Notes under the pieces: generated by a model
The model's input: only the letters and a program-made list of their open reading frames with translations
What the model was told of the DNA's origin: nothing
Database searches by the model: none
Shown: piece after piece, positions 144 to 14,588 of the stretch
How the letters are laid out: each line of letters begins with the position of its first letter
Position numbering within the stretch: position 1 is the stretch's first letter
Position numbers and translations under genes: made by a program
Virus genome (UHGV): UHGV-1840666
Direction: 5' to 3' (one strand)
DNA length: 14,588 nt
Source: a virus

Positions 144-256
144 ATGTATTCATTTCTATTCACTCTACACCATATTTTTCGGCGGTACAGGTGACGGTAT
201 TACCTTAAAGGTATACTCTCATACCGTCATGAAAATGGTTTCTATACGGGTGAATT

Positions 257-1506
257 GTGCTTACCGATACAAAATTAAAAAACCTCAAGCCGCAGGACAA
301 ACTGTACAAGGTCTCCGATCGTGACGGGCTGTATGTAGCTGTGCTTACGTCAGGCACGGTCTCGTTTCGCTACGACTACCGTATCAACGGTCGCCGCGAA
401 ACGCTGGTAATCGGGCAGTATGGGCGTGACGGTATCAGCCTGGCAGAAGCGCGAGAAGAACTGATTGCTGCAAAGAAGCTGCTTAAAGCAGGCCAGTCAC
501 CGGCTGCGGCTAAACGTGACGGTATCAAAAAGATTCGTGGTGCCGAGACGTTTGCGGTACATACCGACAGTTATATGAAACACGTCATCCTGGCTGACAG
601 TACCCGCGCAATGAAACAGGCGGTGATCGACCGTGACATACTTCCGGTTCTTGGCAATAAAATGATGGCTGAAATTACCACATCGATGGTTCGTGATTTG
701 TGTGACCGGATTGTCGAACGCGGTGGCCGGGCAACAGCAGTGCAGGCCAGGGAGATCATCAGTAGCGTATACCGTCACGCCAATGACCGTGGTCATGGTT
801 TGTTTAATCCTGCGGCTGACATTAAACCTTCGTCTATCGCCATATTTAAACCAAGAGAGCGAACACTGACACCAGAAGAAATTGGCCTGTTCTTCCGCAC
901 GCTGGATGCCATTGGTGCTATGGCACTATGAAAATGGCTTTAAAGCTGGTGCTTATCACTATGGTTCGTAAAGGCGAATTCACCAACGCAACGTGGGATG
1001 AAATAGATTTTAAAAAATGGACATGGACCATTCCTTCAGACCGCATGAAGGGAAGCCGGGCGCACGTTATTTACCTGCCTAAACAGGCTCAGGATATATT
1101 GGTCGGATTGCAGATGTGCGCTGGTGGAAGTGAATATCTGGTTCCTGGTCGTTACAATTTCCGGAAGCCATTATCTAATGCCGCGCTGAACTCTCTGATC
1201 GACAGAACGGTGAAAATAATAAATGAAGATGGTGAGCATATTCAGGGCTTCACCGTACACGATATGCGCCGTACAGCCAGTACATTGTTGCATGAGGCTG
1301 GTTATCCTTCAGACTGGATTGAAAAGGCTCTGGCACATGAGCAGAAAGGTGTGCGCGCCGTATATAACAAAGCGGAATACGCCAGACAGCGCGCCTACAT
1401 GTTGCAGCAGTGGGCCGATATGATTGATTCCTGGATTGACGGGGAGCATACGGATCTGATTCCGTTCTCCCCGTCGAAGTTTGAGAAGTGGATGGCGGGG
1501 GAATAA
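257..1506 (+). CDS. int: Tyrosine recombinase, P4-type phage integrase (N-terminal DUF4102-like arm-binding region plus C-terminal catalytic domain); split into two ORFs (257-931, 928-1506) by a frameshift near 925-935
   Basis: N-terminal ORF (GTG start) has LTDTKLKNLKP...YRINGRRETLVIGQYG typical of P4-like integrases. C-terminal ORF has VLITMVRKGEF...HDMRRTASTLL...YNKAEYARQ (R/H-x-x-R and Tyr region). Combined about 415 aa. Frame change 2 to 1 is consistent with a 1-bp deletion. Confidence 0.85.
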
Positions 1507-6179: not shown

Positions 6180-6332
6180 TCAGCCCTCCCATATCTCGTT
6201 ATCGTTGGCCACATCGCGAGCTTCTTTGCTGACGAAAGCCCACTTAATGCCTTCCTGTAAGGTGCGGAACTTCCAGCTCATGAATCCGCATGCAGTAACG
6301 CAGTACCAACCGTTGATGATTTTCCACTGCAT
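6180..6332 (-). CDS. Small hypothetical protein (50 aa), first gene of the leftward early operon
   Basis: ATG 6332-6330 just downstream of the leftward promoter/operator region, product MQWKIINGWYCVTACGFMSWKFRTLQEGIKWAFVSKEARDVANDNEIWEG; stop 3 nt before the next ATG. Confidence 0.35.
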   Translation of the reverse strand: MQWKIINGWYCVTACGFMSWKFRTLQEGIKWAFVSKEARDVANDNEIWEG

Positions 6333-6351
6333 AACTTGTTACCTCGGTCTG

Positions 6352-6428
6352 TTACCGTTGAGGTAATAATTATGCGTATTTGGTTTGATGTCAATAGATA
6401 TGAGTTAAAAAAATTACCCATAAGGTAA
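6352..6428 (-). promoter_or_regulatory. Leftward early (PL-like) promoter with two flanking operators
   Basis: Palindromes TTACCgttgaGGTAA (6352-6366) and TTACCcataaGGTAA (6414-6428) flank a perfect -35 TTGACA on the minus strand (6394-6389); AT-rich -10 region is ambiguous. An extra half-site TTACC lies at 6339-6343. Confidence 0.5.
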
Positions 6429-6440
6429 TCTTGTTGGCAA

Positions 6441-6463
6441 TAAAAAAGCCGCCATGAGGCGGC
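6441..6463 (-). terminator. Rho-independent terminator downstream of the repressor gene
   Basis: GCCGCC (6448-6453) / GGCGGC (6458-6463) stem with ATGA loop; on the minus strand the stem is followed by TTTTTT (complement of the A-run 6442-6447). Confidence 0.6.
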
Positions 6464-6485
6464 TTACTTACTGAAAACTATAGTT

Positions 6486-7069
6486 TTATTGTTTGCTTCT
6501 TTCGTTCTGGCTGATGACAAATTCAATGTAACTTTCGATCTTTGCCTTCTCTGTTTCGGGTAACAATGCGTAGCGCGAGCGGTCATAGTTGATAGTCGCA
6601 GGGTCGTGCGGGTGAATCAGTAATTCATAGCCGTGACGCCCGAATGCGGATGCAACATTCTCCAGGGTGGAAATGGAAACGCTGACTTCATTGTTTAACA
6701 GGCGGCTGATTGTCACCTGGCGACGCCGGATGCGCGGTGTAGTTTTCCCTGCGTTGAAAGGTCGCGGCTTTCGCTCATCCAGCGTTCCAGGTTGTGAGCC
6801 GCCAGCTGACCAATGTCGCTTGGGCCGACAGGCTGAAACCCCTCCTGAGAAAGCGAGCGATCGATATCAAGCCAGTTACGGGGTTTATTGGCGGCAGCTT
6901 CAATTTTTCGCGCAACCTGGTCGCCGATAACCTTCTTGCCAAGAGCCCAGCGGTTTACCAGATTTGCCTGAGTTCCAAGTTTTTCTGCCATCCGCGTCTG
7001 AACACCATTGAATTCACGGTCGATCAAGTCGTTGAGATTTTGCCTGCGGACGTCCTGGATACTTTTCAT
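6486..7069 (-). CDS. Phage immunity repressor with two tandem XRE-type HTH domains and no S24 peptidase domain; split by a 1-bp frameshift near 6714-6720
   Basis: N-terminal ORF ...GVQTRMAEKLGTQANLVNRWALGKKVIGDQVARKIEAAANKPRNWLD (HTH 1). After the shift the sequence reads ...LSTQGKLHRASGVAR-VTISRLLNNEVSVSISTLENVASAFG... (HTH 2). Sits between the two operator clusters, divergent from the Cro-like gene. Confidence 0.8.
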
Positions 7070-7124
7070 TTTCTGGAAAATCGCCTCATATATGAATCAG
7101 TAGATGATTCAATTTAAAGCAATA

Positions 7125-7187
7125 TTACCCAACAGGTAAATGCACCTCATAGGTAACTATCCTTGATTTTTGTTACCTTATGGGTGA
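7125..7187. promoter_or_regulatory. Tripartite operator region (OR-like) between the repressor and cro-like genes
   Basis: TTACCcaacaGGTAA (7125-7139), GCACCtcataGGTAA (7142-7156, imperfect), TTACCttatgGGTGA (7173-7187, imperfect); candidate -35 TTGATT at 7163-7168. Confidence 0.5.
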
Positions 7188-7223
7188 ATATTTATTATCT
7201 GAAATAAATATCAGGCAATAGCT

Positions 7224-7454
7224 ATGAGCGATAACGGACATTTCGATTTCAAAAAGCACTGGCTTGCACTTACTCCGGATGAGCGTGAAGCCTTCGCACA
7301 GGAAGCCGGAACGACGAGTCACTATATCCAGACTCACTTAACAGGTAAGCGCAAAATGCCAGGTAAAGTATTGATGAATGGGCTTTTTAAAGCCTGTAAA
7401 ACAAGACAATGGCTGCGCTCAAAAGCAGAACTGGCATACTTCTTCTACTCATGA
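7224..7454 (+). CDS. Cro/YdaS-like small HTH regulator (76 aa)
   Basis: First rightward gene after the operator region; ...TPDEREAFAQEAGTTSHYIQTHLTGKRKMPGKVLMNG... is HTH-like; followed by a terminator. Confidence 0.6.
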   Translation: MSDNGHFDFKKHWLALTPDEREAFAQEAGTTSHYIQTHLTGKRKMPGKVLMNGLFKACKTRQWLRSKAELAYFFYS

Positions 7455-7476
7455 TATCCAGCTACAACCCTCTGTA

Positions 7477-7498
7477 GACCGCCACCCGGCGGTCTTTT
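7477..7498 (+). terminator. Rho-independent terminator after the cro-like gene (tR1-like position)
   Basis: GACCGCC (7477-7483) / GGCGGTC (7488-7494) stem, ACCC loop, then TTTT. Confidence 0.6.
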
Positions 7499-7602
7499 CA
7501 TATCTATTCGTACCTCAAAGGTAATAAAAAACCAAATCTGGTTGATCAAATTTTCCAATTGTGCAAAATATCCAATATCAATAACAAAAAGAGGCGGAAA
7601 AA

Positions 7603-7815
7603 TTGAAGATAGTAACCAGAATGGAGGCCGCAAAAGCCGGGTTAAATCGCTATTTCACAGGAAAGCGGTGCCGTCACGGCCATCTCTCTGAAAGGTATGT
7701 TCTGAACGGAACATGTGTTGAATGTGCAATGAATAGCGCCAACCGCCATCGTAATGAATTTGCTTGTGCACTAAAGAGTGCAAGAGGGGAAACCTATGGC
7801 AAGCAGCTGGATTAA
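7603..7815 (+). CDS. Small Cys/His-rich hypothetical protein at the cII position (about 70 aa)
   Basis: TTG start with AGAGG RBS 8 nt upstream; product has C-x-H-G-H ... C-x-x-C spacing (KRCRHGHLSERYVLNGTCVECAM), suggesting a zinc ribbon. Function unknown. Confidence 0.45.
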   Translation: MKIVTRMEAAKAGLNRYFTGKRCRHGHLSERYVLNGTCVECAMNSANRHRNEFACALKSARGETYGKQLD

Positions 7816-8619
7816 GGTTGAAGTTATCACTCCTGATAAACCTGAAATTTTTCAGATAGCAGAAATTCTGGGTATTGATCCAGATGCTGTTCTTGGAAAG
7901 CTGGTTCGTATATGGGCATGGGCTGACCAGCAAACAATAGACGGTAACGCTGGCAGCGTTACAAAAGGAGTACTTGATAGACTCGCTTTTATTACAGGAT
8001 TTGCTGACGCCCTCATTAGCGTCGGATGGCTTGCTTATCATGACGGCAAACTAATTCTTCCAAACTTTGAGCGACACAATGGAGAATCATCGAAAAAACG
8101 TGCACTTACGAATAGAAGAGTGGCAGAGCATCGAAAACGAGTAACGCAAAAATAACGCCAACAGCGTTACAAAAGGAGTTACCAGAGGAAGAGGAAGATA
8201 TATATAAAACCCCACACATAGCGCACGTGCGCGAGGGTGCTCCGACCAGTGAAGCGAACGGTATGCCGTTGCAGGTGGCTGAACCTGAATTTCTGGATGG
8301 CCTGAGTGAACCCATCGGGAAATTTCCGATGACCGATGGCCGGCATCCGTCGCCGGATTTTCGACGGCGTGCTGCGCTGTGGGGAACGGCCCTGCCGGAA
8401 CCGGAATTTACACCTGCTGAACTTGCTGCATTCCGGGATTACTGGATGGCTGAGGGCAAAGTGTTCACGCAGGTTCAGTGGGAACAAAAATTCGCCAGGC
8501 ACGTAAATCATATCAGGGGAAAATCAAAAAACGCCGGGAAAAGCGATGAGCTTGACTGGAATAACACTGACTGGATAGAAGGGGTGTGGGATGAAATCAA
8601 CTCCAGAACTTCTCAATGA
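7796..8619 (+). CDS. Replication initiator: replisome-organizer N-terminal domain fused to a DnaT-like C-terminal domain; frameshift near 8134-8140
   Basis: ATG 7796 with AGAGGGGA RBS. N-part MASSWIKVEVITPDKPEIFQIAEILGID...VGWLAYHDGKL. After a -1 shift the frame reads NAKITPTALQKELPEEEEDIYK... and continues ...IGKFPMTDGRHPSPDFRRRAALWGTALPEPEFTPAELAAFRDYWMAEGKVFTQVQWEQKFARHV, closely resembling the E. coli DnaT C-terminus as recalled. Confidence 0.7.
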
Positions 8620-9366
8620 GTACGATCGCTTACGTGAGCATGGTGTTGCTGTGCATGAAGAGCGGCGTGACAGCAATGGCAAAAAGGAGCATGTCGCTAG
8701 AATTTTCAATGAACTATTTGTCCAGTTACAGGCTGCATTTCCCGCAAGCGTTTCGACCATAAGGGAGCAGAACAAACTTAATGAATTCCGTAAGCAATGG
8801 ATGCTTGCGTTTCTGGAGAATGGGATCACTACAATGGAACAGGTTAACGCTGGTATGCGCCACGCCCGCGCCAGTGAGTCTCCGTTCTGGCCGTCGCCAG
8901 GGCAATTCATCAAGTGGTGTAAAGACAGCAAGATGGTTCTTGGCGTCACCATTGACGATGTGATGGCAGAGTTTCACCGGTACAGCAAGGAAAAAAGTTT
9001 ATATCCTGGTGGTCCCGAAAGATTCCCGTGGCGGCACCCGGTTATGTACTGGGTCGTATGTGATACCCGCCGTGCAATGTATCAGCGCCAGCTTAGCGAG
9101 ATTGAGTTGAGAAACACGCGCGCAGGCTGCTCGATGATTGGGCGAAAAAGGTGGCTTCAGGACAGCAGATACCCGATCCGGTGATCAGCATACAGGCAAA
9201 GCCAGAACCCATGAGTACGCCTCCGGACACAGGGAGAGACGTTTACCATCCACCAGGGCGAAGTTTCGGGTGCATGCCTAACGCCGCCACCCTTGGGGGA
9301 ATAACACCGGCGCAGTGGCTGATGGAGGAATACAGGCGGGGAAAGGCGGCAGGATTTATCAAGTAA
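8591..9366 (+). CDS. Lambda P-like replication protein (DnaB helicase loader); frameshift near 9108-9116
   Basis: ...QWMLAFLENGITTMEQVNAGMRHARASESPFWPSPGQFIKWCKD... matches the conserved core of lambda P as recalled. The C-terminus continues in the adjacent frame (...RRLLDDWAKKVASGQQIPDPV...). Confidence 0.75.
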
Positions 9367-9371
9367 TACCA

Positions 9372-9391
9372 GCGCGATAGCGCATTTTTTT
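9372..9391 (+). terminator. Possible weak terminator after the P-like gene
   Basis: GCGC-gata-GCGC hairpin (9372-9383) followed by A then T7 (9385-9391); short stem. Confidence 0.3.
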
Positions 9392-9403
9392 ACGTCTCGA
9401 TAA

Positions 9404-9480
9404 TTACCTGTGAGGTAATAAAATATTCTAAACTCTATTGATTTCGTGTCTTATGTGGTTTTTAATTACCTCAGGGGTAA
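9404..9480 (+). promoter_or_regulatory. Second repressor-controlled promoter module driving the rightward accessory operon
   Basis: TTACCtgtgaGGTAA (9404-9418), -35 TTGATT (9438-9443), 17-bp spacer, -10 TTTAAT (9461-9466), TTACCtcaggGGTAA (9466-9480). Spacing is identical to the leftward module at 6352-6428. Confidence 0.5.
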
Positions 9481-9483
9481 ATT

Positions 9484-9827
9484 ATGAGAAAACAGATACA
9501 GGCTCTTGGTCGACTCAAAACAGGCAGATGAACAAAACAGAATCTGCGTATTGCCAGCACCTTGAGCTGCGTAAACGTGCAGGGGAAATCGCCTGGTATC
9601 GATTTGAGGGTATCAAGCTGCGATTAGCTGACAACACGTTCTATACGCCCGATTTTGCTGTGATGCTCGCCACCGGCGAGATGGAACTGCACGAAGTGAA
9701 AGGTTTCTGGACCGACGACGCCAGGGTGAAAACCAAAGTCGCCGCAGATCAGTATCCGTTCCGAATCATCGGGGTAACGGTTAAACCAAAGAAAGCAGGT
9801 GGTGGCTGGAACATCGAAGAGTTCTGA
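9484..9827 (+). CDS. Hypothetical phage protein with a GFW-DDA-V motif weakly reminiscent of RusA-type resolvases; N-terminus uncertain
   Basis: Main ORF from ATG 9528 (MNKTESAYCQHLELRKRAGEIAWYRFEGIKLRLADNTFYTPDF...GFWTDDARVKTKV...). A 15-codon ORF with a good RBS starts at 9484 and ends ATGA-overlapping 9528; this is either a coupled leader peptide or the real start displaced by a 1-bp deletion in the A-run at 9488-9492. Confidence 0.5.
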
Positions 9828-11867: not shown

Positions 11868-12642
11868 TCACTATTACCAATAAGAAACAGTATCCCAGCG
11901 AGCAATATCTTAATGAGCTGATCACCAACATAGAGTTTGCTGCAAGGGCACCAGTTGAAGTCGTGAGAGCAATGGCAGCAGAGCTACAGAAGCGGCGCGA
12001 AGCTGATAGCGCAGAACCAGTTGCTTATATTTTCAAACATCCGGCCGGGAAATTATTCTGGGCTTTAACGGATGAAAGTAATAAAGAGCAAGCGGACGTT
12101 ATTCCTGTTTATGCCGCCCCTCCAGTGCCAGTAGTACCTGAAGAAAAACCAATGCCTAACCCTCTTAAAATGTACGCGGTCGATGCTGTTGCCGCTATTG
12201 CAGAGGTGAGAGGCTGGAACGCTGCCGCGCCGCCATGCTTCAGGCCGAACCTGTAAGTAATAGTGATGAGTTACCGCTGGACTATCTGCAAGGACACAAA
12301 GACGGCCTGGAGTGGGCTGCACAATTGGCAGAAGCCAATCATCCGCAAACAGGTGACTGGTTGTACGACGACCCAATCGATCTTGCCAGGGCGATTCGCA
12401 AAGGTCCTGATATGCCTACTGTTCAGGCTGGCAACTATCCGGTAACTCCGGATGGTTGGATAAGCTGTAGTGAGCGAATGCCCGCTCAAGATGATTGGAT
12501 TTTAATTTATTCAAAGCACGGCGAGTATATGGCAGGACAGGTACAAGGGGAATACGTGGAGTTGAGCGACGGCACTTTATCGTGGTTAGGGAACGCCTTG
12601 TACTGGATGCCTCTACCGGAACCGCCGCAGGAGGTTAATTGA
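11864..12642 (+). CDS. DUF551-domain phage protein; frameshift near 12215-12235
   Basis: C-terminal part ...DGWISCSERMPAQDDWILIYSKHGEYMAGQVQGEYVELSDGTLSWLGNALYWMPLPEPP is a typical DUF551 signature; the N-terminal ORF from ATG 11864 (AAGGAA RBS) runs into it after a -1 shift. Confidence 0.65.
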
Positions 12643-12926
12643 TGGTCTCCTTCGCGAAATATACGATTATTGACTGGATAGCATTCATTCAGGTTTTGCT
12701 CATCTGGTTTTATATGGCTTACAGGAGTGGACAGTGGATTGTCAGTGTAGCCTGTAGCAATGGATGGCGTTGGTGGAACCGAAAGAATAAAAAAGCGCTG
12801 GCCTTGGCTTCGTTTTACGAAGCATTCAATCTTAACAGTCTTCAGCCTGGTTCTGTCGTTGTAGTCACCACTCAAAGCGGCATGACGATACAAATTCACA
12901 AGCCAAAGGAGGAAGGTCGTGGCTAA
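12642..12926 (+). CDS. Hypothetical protein with N-terminal transmembrane helix (94 aa)
   Basis: ATG 12642 overlapping the upstream stop (TGATG), AGGAGG RBS 9 nt upstream; hydrophobic segment IIDWIAFIQVLLIWFYMAY. Confidence 0.45.
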   Translation: MVSFAKYTIIDWIAFIQVLLIWFYMAYRSGQWIVSVACSNGWRWWNRKNKKALALASFYEAFNLNSLQPGSVVVVTTQSGMTIQIHKPKEEGRG

Positions 12927-13203
12927 CCTGCAACTTGCCGTTAAAGGTGAATACTTCGATGCCATGATTCGCGGAGAGAAAACGGAAGAGTATCGCCTGT
13001 GTAATGACTACTGGAATAAGCGAATTATGTTCCGCGAGTATGACCGCCTGATTATCACAAAGGGATATCCGAAGCGCGACGATTCCAGCCGCAGAATTGA
13101 CGTCCCGTATGACGGATATGAAATCAAGACAATCACACATCCGCACTTCGGCGATAAACCGGTAAAGGTGTTCGCGATAAAGGTGAATATCAGCAATGAA
13201 TAA
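12919..13203 (+). CDS. ASCH-domain-like protein (94 aa)
   Basis: GTG 12919 with GGAGGAAGG RBS; ...AVKGEYFDAMIRGEKTEEYR...YDRLIITKGY...KVFAIKV fits the ASCH/PUA-like pattern. Confidence 0.5.
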   Translation: MANLQLAVKGEYFDAMIRGEKTEEYRLCNDYWNKRIMFREYDRLIITKGYPKRDDSSRRIDVPYDGYEIKTITHPHFGDKPVKVFAIKVNISNE

Positions 13204-13237
13204 CAATCCTCGCACTCGCGGGGATTTCTTTTATCTG

Positions 13238-13262
13238 AACTCGCTACGGCGAGTTTTGTTTT
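13238..13262 (+). terminator. Rho-independent terminator after the ASCH-like gene
   Basis: AACTCGC (13238-13244) / GCGAGTT (13249-13255) stem, TACG loop, then TTTTGTTTT. Confidence 0.5.
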
Positions 13263-13275
13263 ATGGAGATGATAA

Positions 13276-13443
13276 ATGCACTTCCGGGTGACAGGTGAAT
13301 GGAATGGAGAACCATTCAACAGAGTTATCGAAGCGGAGAACATCAACGACTGCTATGACCACTGGATGCTGTGGGCGCAGATAGCGCATGCAGACGTAAC
13401 CAATATTCGAATTGAAGAACTGAAAGAACACCATGCCGCCTGA
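13276..13443 (+). CDS. Small hypothetical protein (55 aa), possibly the lambda orf55 equivalent
   Basis: ATG 13276 with GGAG RBS; MHFRVTGEWNGEPFNRVIEAENINDCYDHWMLWAQIAHADVTNIRIEELKEHHAA. Below the track cutoff; the orf55 link is from memory of lambda gene order only. Confidence 0.4.
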   Translation: MHFRVTGEWNGEPFNRVIEAENINDCYDHWMLWAQIAHADVTNIRIEELKEHHAA

Positions 13444-13456
13444 TGGCGGTTTTTTA
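13435..13456 (+). terminator. Rho-independent terminator overlapping the stop of the 55-aa ORF
   Basis: GCCGCC (13435-13440) / GGCGGT (13445-13450) stem, TGAT loop, then a T-run (13450-13455). Confidence 0.5.
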
Positions 13457-13469
13457 TTGGAGACAAGAA

Positions 13470-13814
13470 ATGTCAGATTTGGCTATGAAGGTTTTGAAAT
13501 GGCAATCGACTGGCGATGTCGGCATCAGTAGCGCAACTCTTGCCTCAATCGCATGTGGACTGAAAAAGAATATCTATGGTCATAGCTTCGGTGCTCCACA
13601 TGACGCAGCCGATTTCCGGCGATGCGTTGCACTTGTTGAGCAGATTCCAGAAATCAGAGATTCATTCGACAAGGTTGCAAAGCTCGTTCCGGCATTCAAA
13701 GGCATCCTCAACGAATGGGATTCCCTCGTTGCTCTGTTGAAGTCTGAAATGAAGATACACGGAAACAAAGCACCAGAGACTTACAGAAGAATTAGCGAAC
13801 TACGCAAGGACTAA
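13470..13814 (+). CDS. Hypothetical protein (114 aa) upstream of xis
   Basis: ATG 13470 with GGAG 7 nt upstream (the track start at 13443 lies inside the terminator loop); MSDLAMKVLKWQSTGDVGISSATLASIACGLKK... Confidence 0.5.
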   Translation: MSDLAMKVLKWQSTGDVGISSATLASIACGLKKNIYGHSFGAPHDAADFRRCVALVEQIPEIRDSFDKVAKLVPAFKGILNEWDSLVALLKSEMKIHGNKAPETYRRISELRKD

Positions 13815-13929
13815 CCATGGAATCACACAGCCTCAAACCCAATGAGGCCTGTTCATTTCTCAAGATATCCAGACCTACCATTGCCGCATCAATGCGGCTT
13901 TTCTTGCGTGTAATTGCGGAGACTTTGCG

Positions 13930-14148
13930 ATGTACTTGACACTTCAGGAGTGGAACGCACGCCAGCGACGCCCAAGAAGCCTTGAAACAGTTCGTCGATG
14001 GATACGCGAGTGCAGGATATTCCCTCCTCCGGTTAAGGATGGAAGAGAGTATCTGTTCCACGAATCAGCGGTAAAGGTTGACTTAAATCGACCAGTAACA
14101 GGTAGCCTTTTGAAGAGGATCAGAAATGGGAAGAAGGCGAAGTCATGA
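13930..14148 (+). CDS. xis: Excisionase Xis (lambda type)
   Basis: 72-aa product MYLTLQEWNARQRRPRSLETVRRWIRECRIFPPPVKDGREYLFHESAVKVDLNRPVTG.LLKRIRNGKKAKS is near-identical to lambda Xis as recalled; overlaps the int start. Confidence 0.9.
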   Translation: MYLTLQEWNARQRRPRSLETVRRWIRECRIFPPPVKDGREYLFHESAVKVDLNRPVTGSLLKRIRNGKKAKS

Positions 14149-14588
14149 GCGCCGGGATTTACCCCCTAATCTTTATATAAGAAACAATGGATATTACTGC
14201 TATAGGGACCCAAGGACGGGTAAAGAGTTTGGATTAGGCCGAGACAGGAGGATAGCAATCACTGAAGCAATACAGGCCAACATTGAGTTATTTTCAGGAC
14301 ACAAACACAAGCCTCTGACAGCGAGAATCAACAGTGATAATTCTGTTACGTTACATTCATGGCTTGATCGCTACGAAAAAATCCTCGCCAACAGAGGAAT
14401 CAAGCAGAAGACACTCATAAATTACATGAGCAAAATTAAAGCAATAAGGAGGGGTCTGCCTGATGCTCCACTTGAAGACATCACCACAAAAGAAATTGCG
14501 GCAATGCTCAATGGATACATAGACGAGGGCAAGGCGGCGTCAGCAAGTTAATCAGATCAACACTGAGCGATGCATTCCGAGGGAGGCA
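14126..14588 (+). CDS. int: Lambda-type integrase Int, N-terminal part (continues beyond window); 1-bp frameshift near 14545-14548
   Basis: MGRRRSHERRDLPPNLYIRNNGYYCYRDPRTGKEFGLGRDRRIAITEAIQANIELFSGHKHKPLTARINSD... matches the lambda Int N-terminus as recalled. The ORF stops at ...GKAASAS while the +1 frame continues KLIRSTLSDAF..., which is the known lambda continuation. Confidence 0.9.

Follow-up and report, generated by a model that had tools for sequence, protein, structure and literature searches.

The 14,588-nucleotide sequence of virus genome UHGV-1840666, here called the window, carries copies of one short palindrome, TTACC-N5-GGTAA, in the DNA between its genes. These copies raise the question of whether a single repressor governs the window from all of them and, in particular, whether the genes lying behind the replication gene P have a repressor-controlled promoter of their own. 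Judged from its sequence, the window is a prophage of the genus Uetakevirus (phiV10/epsilon15/SPC32H-like) at guaA. An earlier reading of the sequence alone, referred to here as the original prediction, had placed one operator family at three regulatory regions: the leftward promoter PL, the divergent switch between the repressor gene rep and a cro-like gene, and the region after P, which we call P3. We consider it likely that the palindromes are operators of the repressor, Rep, and that Rep would directly control at least four promoters, including an independent one at P3.

A palindrome between the genes

The exact motif, TTACCNNNNNGGTAA (TTACC-N5-GGTAA), occurred five times in the window, and 0 of 200 dinucleotide-preserving shuffles gave any exact match (Table 1). 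With one mismatch allowed, 8 sites were observed against 0.23 expected, the sites at 7173-7187, 7510-7524 and 200-214 joining the five exact ones. As an unbiased check, all 5+5 inverted repeats with any gap were enumerated in the window, and TTACC with a five-base gap ranked first. The site at 7142-7156 (GCACC..GGTAA) has two mismatches and is exact at the same position in Salmonella and Klebsiella relatives. All nine sites lie between the open reading frames (ORFs) of the window and, when placed on a 99.8% identical prophage, between its annotated genes, in agreement with the claim that they are restricted to intergenic control regions. Seven palindromes had been predicted originally; five proved exact and two, those at 7142-7156 and 7173-7187, degenerate, and together they form one operator family common to PL, the rep/cro switch and the region after P. 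The count of three regulatory regions was right in that each of these carries sites, but it understated the spread, which extends to 7510-7524 and 200-214.

The same sites were found in related phages. A motif scan of the whole genome of vB_EcoP_ZX5 (ZX5), the genome in which intergenic position was compared with a gene table, gave ten exact sites, all of them in the 8.6% of the DNA that is non-coding (P about 2e-11) and none in coding DNA; four one-mismatch sites were likewise non-coding. The ZX5 sites stand ahead of nearly every transcription unit. Complete relatives hold 8-10 exact sites per roughly 39-kb genome, and SPC32H has ten, among them pairs 62 bp apart at PL and behind the replication gene. 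Exact sites in SPC32H, Tyrion, BUCT554 and the Klebsiella phage BUCT711 fall in the same regulatory regions. Over the relatives, these regions are PL, the rep/cro operator cluster (OR), the DNA after the cro terminator, that after the replication genes, those before terS, before the portal operon and before int, and the divergent ant/tail-fibre region. The 79 exact sites pooled from relatives gave the consensus A-TTACC-wwWww-GGTAA-T, a perfect palindrome of 17 bp, with half-sites invariant and the centre variable in more than 14 genomes from at least nine genera.

Part of this was already public for a relative, since the epsilon15 record (GenBank AY150271.2) annotates both the operator family and its presence in the third region. 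Its features labelled 'protein_bind: repressor / lysogeny' read ATTACC-N5-GGTAAT and lie before terS, before the portal operon, between an Ant-like gene and the tailspike gene, at PL (three sites) and after a replication gene (one site); the epsilon15 site at 35906-35922 is the homologue of the P3 distal operator. The phiV10 record annotates terminators only, and the ZX5 paper names no operators (PMC9782041).

The module behind P and its counterparts

PL, which serves gp39 (ATG at 6332) and the recombination operon, is the best sigma-70 match of the whole window, with 10/12 positions in the promoter scan. Its proximal operator begins at the last base of the -10 hexamer and spans about -7 to +8. 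Because the -10 abuts this operator, the two PL operators have their centres near +1 and -61, a separation of about six helical turns. A T-tract follows the distal operator at the position of an UP element, and CTATTGAC at PL was invariant in 14 genomes. The terminator of the repressor transcript, which precedes PL, is also annotated in the phiV10 record.

P3 has the same geometry. Both modules are 77 bp long and consist of an operator, 19 bp, a -35 (TTGACA at PL, TTGATT at P3), 22 bp and a second operator, and both proximal operators begin TTACCTCA. The original description of the two as near-identical promoter modules was correct for this geometry, but in sequence only 46 of the 77 positions are identical, and 26 of the 57 outside the half-sites (shuffle mean 17.3, P about 0.008). 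Operator pairs 61-63 bp apart flanked an invariant TATTGA in all 16 related genomes measured. The three-region layout with pairs of this spacing was seen in Superficieibacter, Erwinia dacicola, K. pneumoniae, two Citrobacter species and Scandinavium, and in additional prophages of E. coli. In a more distant Serratia prophage every region carries the motif, but the pairs are spaced differently, by 75 bp at PL and by 18 bp behind the replication genes.

Alignment of P3 over 12 genomes separated the fixed positions from the free ones. TATTGA is invariant and is followed by 17-18 nt, the bases around it drift, and TTwAAT runs into the proximal operator; N5 is free to vary between invariant half-sites. 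The start codon comes 2-5 nt after the proximal operator, 3 nt in most genomes, and the P3 -35 lies at the same spacing as that of PL. Upstream, the hairpin GCGC-N4-GCGC that follows the P stop has an invariant stem and T-run and a variable loop in 13 genomes, and the phiV10 record annotates it as a terminator. The conserved hairpin, TATTGA, half-sites and nearby start codon all fit the proposal that the third region would have its own promoter. A separate, putatively repressor-controlled promoter after the P gene is well supported by conservation, because the paired modules recur in all 16 genomes measured. An alternative promoter at 9397-9424, with a conserved TAAAAT -10 after the distal P3 operator, was considered and rejected; its -35 is not conserved, and the TAAAATAT tract was therefore taken as an UP-like element.

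The gene behind P3 in the window encodes a DUF1064 protein that matches PHROG 190 'Holliday junction resolvase'. In intact relatives P3 would drive a Holliday-junction resolvase of either type, DUF1064 or RuvC, together with ea-type accessory genes, and the unit stops short of terS, for which there is a separate operator. The first gene behind P3 alternates between the DUF1064 nuclease and the RuvC resolvase among six of the relatives compared, and the mosaic boundary falls immediately after the proximal operator; the P3 module is therefore conserved independently of its cargo.

An 8-mer, ATGTGGTT, lies at 9453-9460, just upstream of the P3 -10 and the proximal operator. It occurs only three times in ZX5 (2470, 16158 and 22815), always on the + strand, at the tail-fibre, P3 and portal-operon promoters, with an operator or half-operator behind every copy. 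The 8-mer may represent an activator site or a promoter element common to the three.

At the rep/cro switch, the three-site layout was conserved in 10 genomes. The site at 7173-7187 lies inside the spacer of a rightward promoter (TTGATT 7163-7168, 17 nt, GAATAT 7186-7191) whose hexamers were read by eye from the sequence; the promoter scan picked TTGTTA 7170-7175 / TATTAT 7193-7198 instead. By position, the other two sites appear to cover the region where the promoter of rep itself must lie. The cro-like regulator (76 amino acids), divergent from rep, matches PHROG 35 'transcriptional repressor' (E 5.6e-13), and the arrangement of divergent rep and cro-like genes around a tripartite operator is that of a lambda-type switch.

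A fourth module, overlooked by the original prediction, begins with a one-mismatch operator directly after the cro terminator. The site is present with at most one mismatch in ZX5, phiV10, Tyrion, BUCT554, BUCT711 and Superficieibacter, and SPC32H has a degenerate version. It is probably a separate repressor-controlled promoter for the replication operon.

Rep as the candidate binder and rival explanations

A 1-nt deletion at 6718 breaks the window copy of rep into two ORFs; the protein has 194 amino acids in relatives. Residues 1-190 of the intact orthologue, encoded by 99.8% identical DNA, aligned to residues 2-197 of SPC32H Rep (PDB 5D50, E 4.5e-42), so that homology to this type of repressor, which has an N-terminal helix-turn-helix domain that binds DNA, a middle domain and a C-terminal domain for tetramerisation and Ant binding, is full-length. 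The two proteins are about 42% identical and strongly diverged outside the DNA-binding helix. Pfam matches of Rep were confined to HTH_3, HTH_26, LacI-HTH and YdaS-like, all generic helix-turn-helix (HTH) families, and no S24 peptidase domain was among them; the lack of a self-cleavage domain is shared with the SPC32H/epsilon15 type and sets Rep apart from lambda CI. SPC32H Rep is reportedly a tetramer inactivated by a LexA-controlled antirepressor, and according to secondary sources the tetramer holds palindromic DNA with two DNA-binding pairs and is released by Ant. The ant region is missing from the window, since lambdoid DNA takes the place of the structural half. In ZX5, a 98% identical phage, a protein of 85 amino acids shares 88% identity with SPC32H Ant, and the LexA box CTGTATATTTATACAG precedes it. 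This Ant homologue is unannotated in ZX5, whose repressor is only about 42% identical to that of SPC32H; the loci are at 2089-2346 and 2368-2383 in ZX5 and at 19676-19936 in SPC32H. The ZX5 paper took a different, KilAC-type protein as the antirepressor and reported that endolysin and holin transcripts fell by more than 99.9% when the ZX5 repressor (98.5% identical) was overexpressed (PMC9782041).

These data suggest the following mechanism. Rep would act at PL on the minus strand, at the divergent rep/cro switch, probably at the replication-operon promoter, and at P3, where it would control, past the terminator-like hairpin, the resolvase gene and the ea-type accessory genes. At PL and P3 one operator would overlap the -10 end and the transcription start, and the second, 62 bp or about six helical turns further upstream, would lie just past the -35 and the UP-element region. 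A Rep with two DNA-binding pairs could grip both sites on one face of the DNA and so exclude RNA polymerase.

Several observations weigh against parts of this picture. The P3 -10 (TTTAAT or TTAATT) has no key A at position 2 in this clade, so that the promoter scan did not call it, and P3 may be weak or activator-dependent. The stem of the hairpin after P has 4 bp, below the 5-bp threshold of the terminator scan; its folding was no better than that of shuffles, and its support is comparative. Bridging of a 62-bp pair by one tetramer is speculative because a loop of that length is very tight. Relatives were sought by a genome-contig scan with Rep alignment, by a search of 5.8 billion proteins and through the contexts of helix variants, and these searches found no Rep relative with a changed operator, so that covariation speaks neither for nor against Rep. 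Matches that lacked the motif share only the N-terminal domain of Rep and are uninformative.

Were the P3 pair simply a repressor roadblock, similar to a stoperator, it would stop read-through from a leaky terminator in the lysogen, and the genes downstream would be expressed by read-through once Rep is gone. The non-canonical -10 that the scan passed over fits such a role, as do the short and probably leaky hairpin and the operators that adjoin terminators elsewhere, for example the one at 7510 after the cro terminator. A roadblock would, however, need neither a conserved -35 nor a fixed 62-bp pair, and 12 genomes keep TATTGA unchanged amid drifting neighbours, at exactly the spacing found at PL; the geometry of distal operator and AT-tract also duplicates that of the best promoter of the window. 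We therefore regard the roadblock as improbable and a promoter at P3 as the better account. There is next to no probability that the repeats arose by chance or are inert leftovers of duplicated DNA: an AT-rich context is all that speaks for such a reading, which is contradicted by the empty shuffles, by the intergenic position of all the sites and by half-sites that stay fixed around a variable centre across so many genomes and genera.

The identity of the binding protein is a separate matter. The sites were assigned to Rep through co-occurrence, the epsilon15 annotation and homology rather than covariation, and Cro-type proteins usually share the operators of their repressors, so that gp41, the Cro-like protein, may well bind some of these sites. 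It is nevertheless quite improbable, more so than the roadblock, that gp41 or a host factor is the main binder and that Rep recognises something else. Each genome examined has both the motif and a Rep homologue, even where Rep identity falls to 42%, and no other palindrome is over-represented in these genomes. The epsilon15 depositors, who identified the repressor gene, label the sites as repressor sites. The NLVNRW segment of the N-terminal HTH is invariant in six aligned Reps (42-78% identical to the window-type Rep), and more distant homologues vary it conservatively, to NLVSRW, NLINRW, NLISRW or NVISRW, and keep the same operator; TTACC-N5-GGTAA is still the motif with Reps of the first three kinds, one of them a Serratia protein at 54% identity. 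The half-site TTACC/GGTAA was unchanged in every Rep lineage examined (42-100% identity), and these come from Escherichia, Salmonella, Klebsiella, Enterobacter, Citrobacter, Erwinia, Serratia, Scandinavium and Superficieibacter; lambdoid phages, by contrast, have diversified their immunity specificities.

A wider proposal, in which Rep is again the binder, is tentative and as a whole rather unlikely. The PL- and P3-type promoters would be copies of one cassette, clamped by a single Rep tetramer across about 62 bp, around -61 and +1, in an unusually short loop enclosing the whole RNA polymerase site. Distributed direct repression would replace an antitermination cascade. Immunity specificity would not diversify at the operator, unlike in lambdoid phages, because all Rep lineages examined keep the half-site over at least nine enterobacterial genera, although their putative recognition helix carries conservative substitutions.

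The prophage and known systems

The window region is 97-98% identical to phages phiV10, TL-2011b, HEMP4 and ZX5 (genus Uetakevirus, epsilon15 group) and 99.8% identical to prophages adjoining guaA in avian E. coli, and it was matched in 685 of 5,426 complete E. coli genomes. Integration of ZX5 at guaA is published (PMC9782041), and the guaA-adjacent matches of the window agree with it. Rfam and tRNA scans of the window gave no match.

Table 1. Coordinates of genes and predicted regulatory features in the window.
Feature	Position	Strand	Details
Candidate extra operator	200-214	.	TTACCTTAAAGGTAT, 1 mismatch; 42 bp upstream of Uetakevirus int start
int (Uetakevirus)	257-1506	+	
Recombination operon, leftward	ends 6332	-	
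PL proximal operator	6352-6366	-	exact; conserved in 14 genomes
PL	6366-6394	-	-35 TTGACA (6394-6389), 17-nt spacer, -10 AATTAT (6371-6366)
PL distal operator	6414-6428	-	exact; centred 62 bp upstream of proximal operator
Intrinsic terminator of repressor transcript, before PL	6446-6465	-	8-bp stem, 6 GC pairs, T-run
rep	6486-7069	-	
OR cluster	7125-7187	.	7125-7139 exact; 7142-7156, 2 mismatches; 7173-7187, 1 mismatch
cro-like gene	7224-7454	+	
Intrinsic terminator after cro-like gene	7476-7495	+	strong; terminator scan; annotated in phiV10
Fourth module	7510-7570	+	operator GTACCTCAAAGGTAA (7510-7524), 17 bp, TTGATC (7542-7547), 17 nt, AAAATA
gp42, DnaT-like gene, P (replication operon)	up to 9366 (P stop)	+	
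Terminator-like hairpin	9372-9391	+	GCGC-GATA-GCGC, then A and T7; just past P stop
P3 distal operator	9404-9418	+	exact; near-invariant TAAAATAT tract follows
P3 core	9438-9466	+	-35 TTGATT (9438-9443), 17 nt, TTTAAT (9461-9466)
P3 proximal operator	9466-9480	+	exact; contains G-rich ribosome-binding site
DUF1064 gene	9484-9827	+	ATG at 9484
ea-type genes	after DUF1064 gene		

Comparison with the 99.8% identical prophage accounted for the broken genes. Twelve of the 17 differing alignment columns are single-base insertions or deletions (indels), 11 of them deletions and one an insertion in the window, and their positions include 113, 921, 2312, 2508, 2974, 4566, 6718, 8152, 9105 and 9524, plus others. 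They split int, rep, the DnaT-like gene, P and the DUF1064 gene and leave every operator untouched. Because single-base changes predominate, lie mostly in G/C runs and in several cases within CCWGG-like contexts, we read them as most likely long-read sequencing error, not gene decay. A decayed prophage with a dead repressor was ruled out by this same pattern of single-base indels in G/C runs, which is typical of such error.

The right end of the window has another origin. Positions 12426-14581 match a lambdoid prophage that sits beside ybhC at att-lambda; identity to its PL-distal end, in which the genes run DUF551, DUF4752, ASCH, two small genes, xis, int, is 99.3%. Uetakevirus homology ends at 13190, the end of the ASCH gene, and the junction zone at 12426-13190 is a DUF551/DUF4752/ASCH cassette common to both prophages. 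The right end is thus a junction of two prophages through a shared accessory cassette, produced either by real recombination or by misassembly; among complete E. coli genomes, none had a single matching place covering at least 80% of the window. As guaA and att-lambda are on opposite replichores, an inversion is plausible. Four terminator-like hairpins stand between ASCH and xis (13205-13226, 13237-13256, 13435-13450 and 13883-13898), and read-through from P3 into xis-int is doubtful. The Ea22-to-int operon of the original prediction is consequently not a feature of the family, its xis-int end being lambdoid-derived and set off by these hairpins, and the contrast then drawn with lambda falls away, the phage being a Uetakevirus and not lambdoid.

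Two further elements lie outside the modules described above. The site at 200-214 is a candidate operator. Its half-sites are invariant and its N5 varies in 6 genomes, and its last three bases overlap a TATACT -10-like hexamer (212-217); the whole attP-proximal region around it is conserved, and the epsilon15 record marks Int(-arm) and RNase III sites there. The site is nested in a larger inverted repeat, GACGGTAT ... ATACCGTC (193-228). Inside the DnaT-like gene are two 27-bp direct repeats, 7944-7971 and 8152-8179, which are 208 bp apart and each hold the 19-bp palindrome GTAACGC-N5-GCGTTAC. An equivalent pair, TAACGC-N5-GCGTTA, occurs 209 bp apart in two distant relatives. The repeat pair is possibly a replication origin.

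Prophages of the phiV10 type are common, and phiV10 serves as an O157 reporter phage. A repressor-controlled promoter for each operon would yield a usable map of operators, promoters and terminators and would predict which genes are silent in a lysogen. It would also explain which genes can still be expressed from a recombinant prophage such as the window, where a Uetakevirus promoter now has a lambda-type xis-int behind it. The conserved 62-bp operator pairs would offer a simple system for studying how a tetrameric, two-pair repressor engages a promoter.

In lambda CI/Cro, as here, the repressor and cro genes diverge around a three-site operator, and a leftward recombination operon is under the same repressor. 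The differences are considerable. Rep lacks the S24 self-cleavage domain of CI, and an operator pair flanks one promoter at 62 bp, in contrast to the adjacent triplets at lambda OL. The sites are not confined to OL and OR, since they occur at 7510 and 9404-9480 and, in relatives, at terS, portal and tail fibre/ant. With more than two operator regions, most units have an operator of their own in place of an N/Q cascade, a comparison made with no specific search for N/Q homologues. Phage P1 with its C1 operators and mycobacteriophage L5 with its gp71 stoperators each use one repressor at many dispersed sites. The likeness to them is that about ten or more sites are scattered intergenically and silence many units directly; the sites here are symmetric palindromes, usually at promoters, whereas those of P1 and L5 are asymmetric and orientation-dependent. 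No homology of Rep to C1 or gp71 was seen, the Pfam matches being to generic HTH families only.

The closest systems are the Rep-Ant lysis/lysogeny switch of Salmonella phage SPC32H (Kim & Ryu 2013, J Virol 87:11775; Kim et al. 2016, PNAS 113:E2480; structures PDB 5D4Z and 5D50) and epsilon15, with its gp38 repressor. The window shares with SPC32H a full-length homologous Rep and the same sites in the same places, and differs from it in lacking the ant region and in the divergence of Rep away from the DNA-binding helix. With epsilon15 it shares the 17-bp palindrome and the dispersed layout; the epsilon15 record lacks the proximal P3 partner and the OR sites, has a third PL site, and shows RuvC as the first gene after P3 where the window has DUF1064. 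Taken over the window, epsilon15 and SPC32H, the palindrome marks PL, OR, the DNA behind the replication genes and the late operons. This system adds one more member to the SPC32H/epsilon15 Rep family, which was already known, and leaves the current understanding of it intact. Two features may be new: a 62-bp operator pair that is conserved and recurs as a promoter cassette, and an operator that stays the same in all Rep lineages examined.

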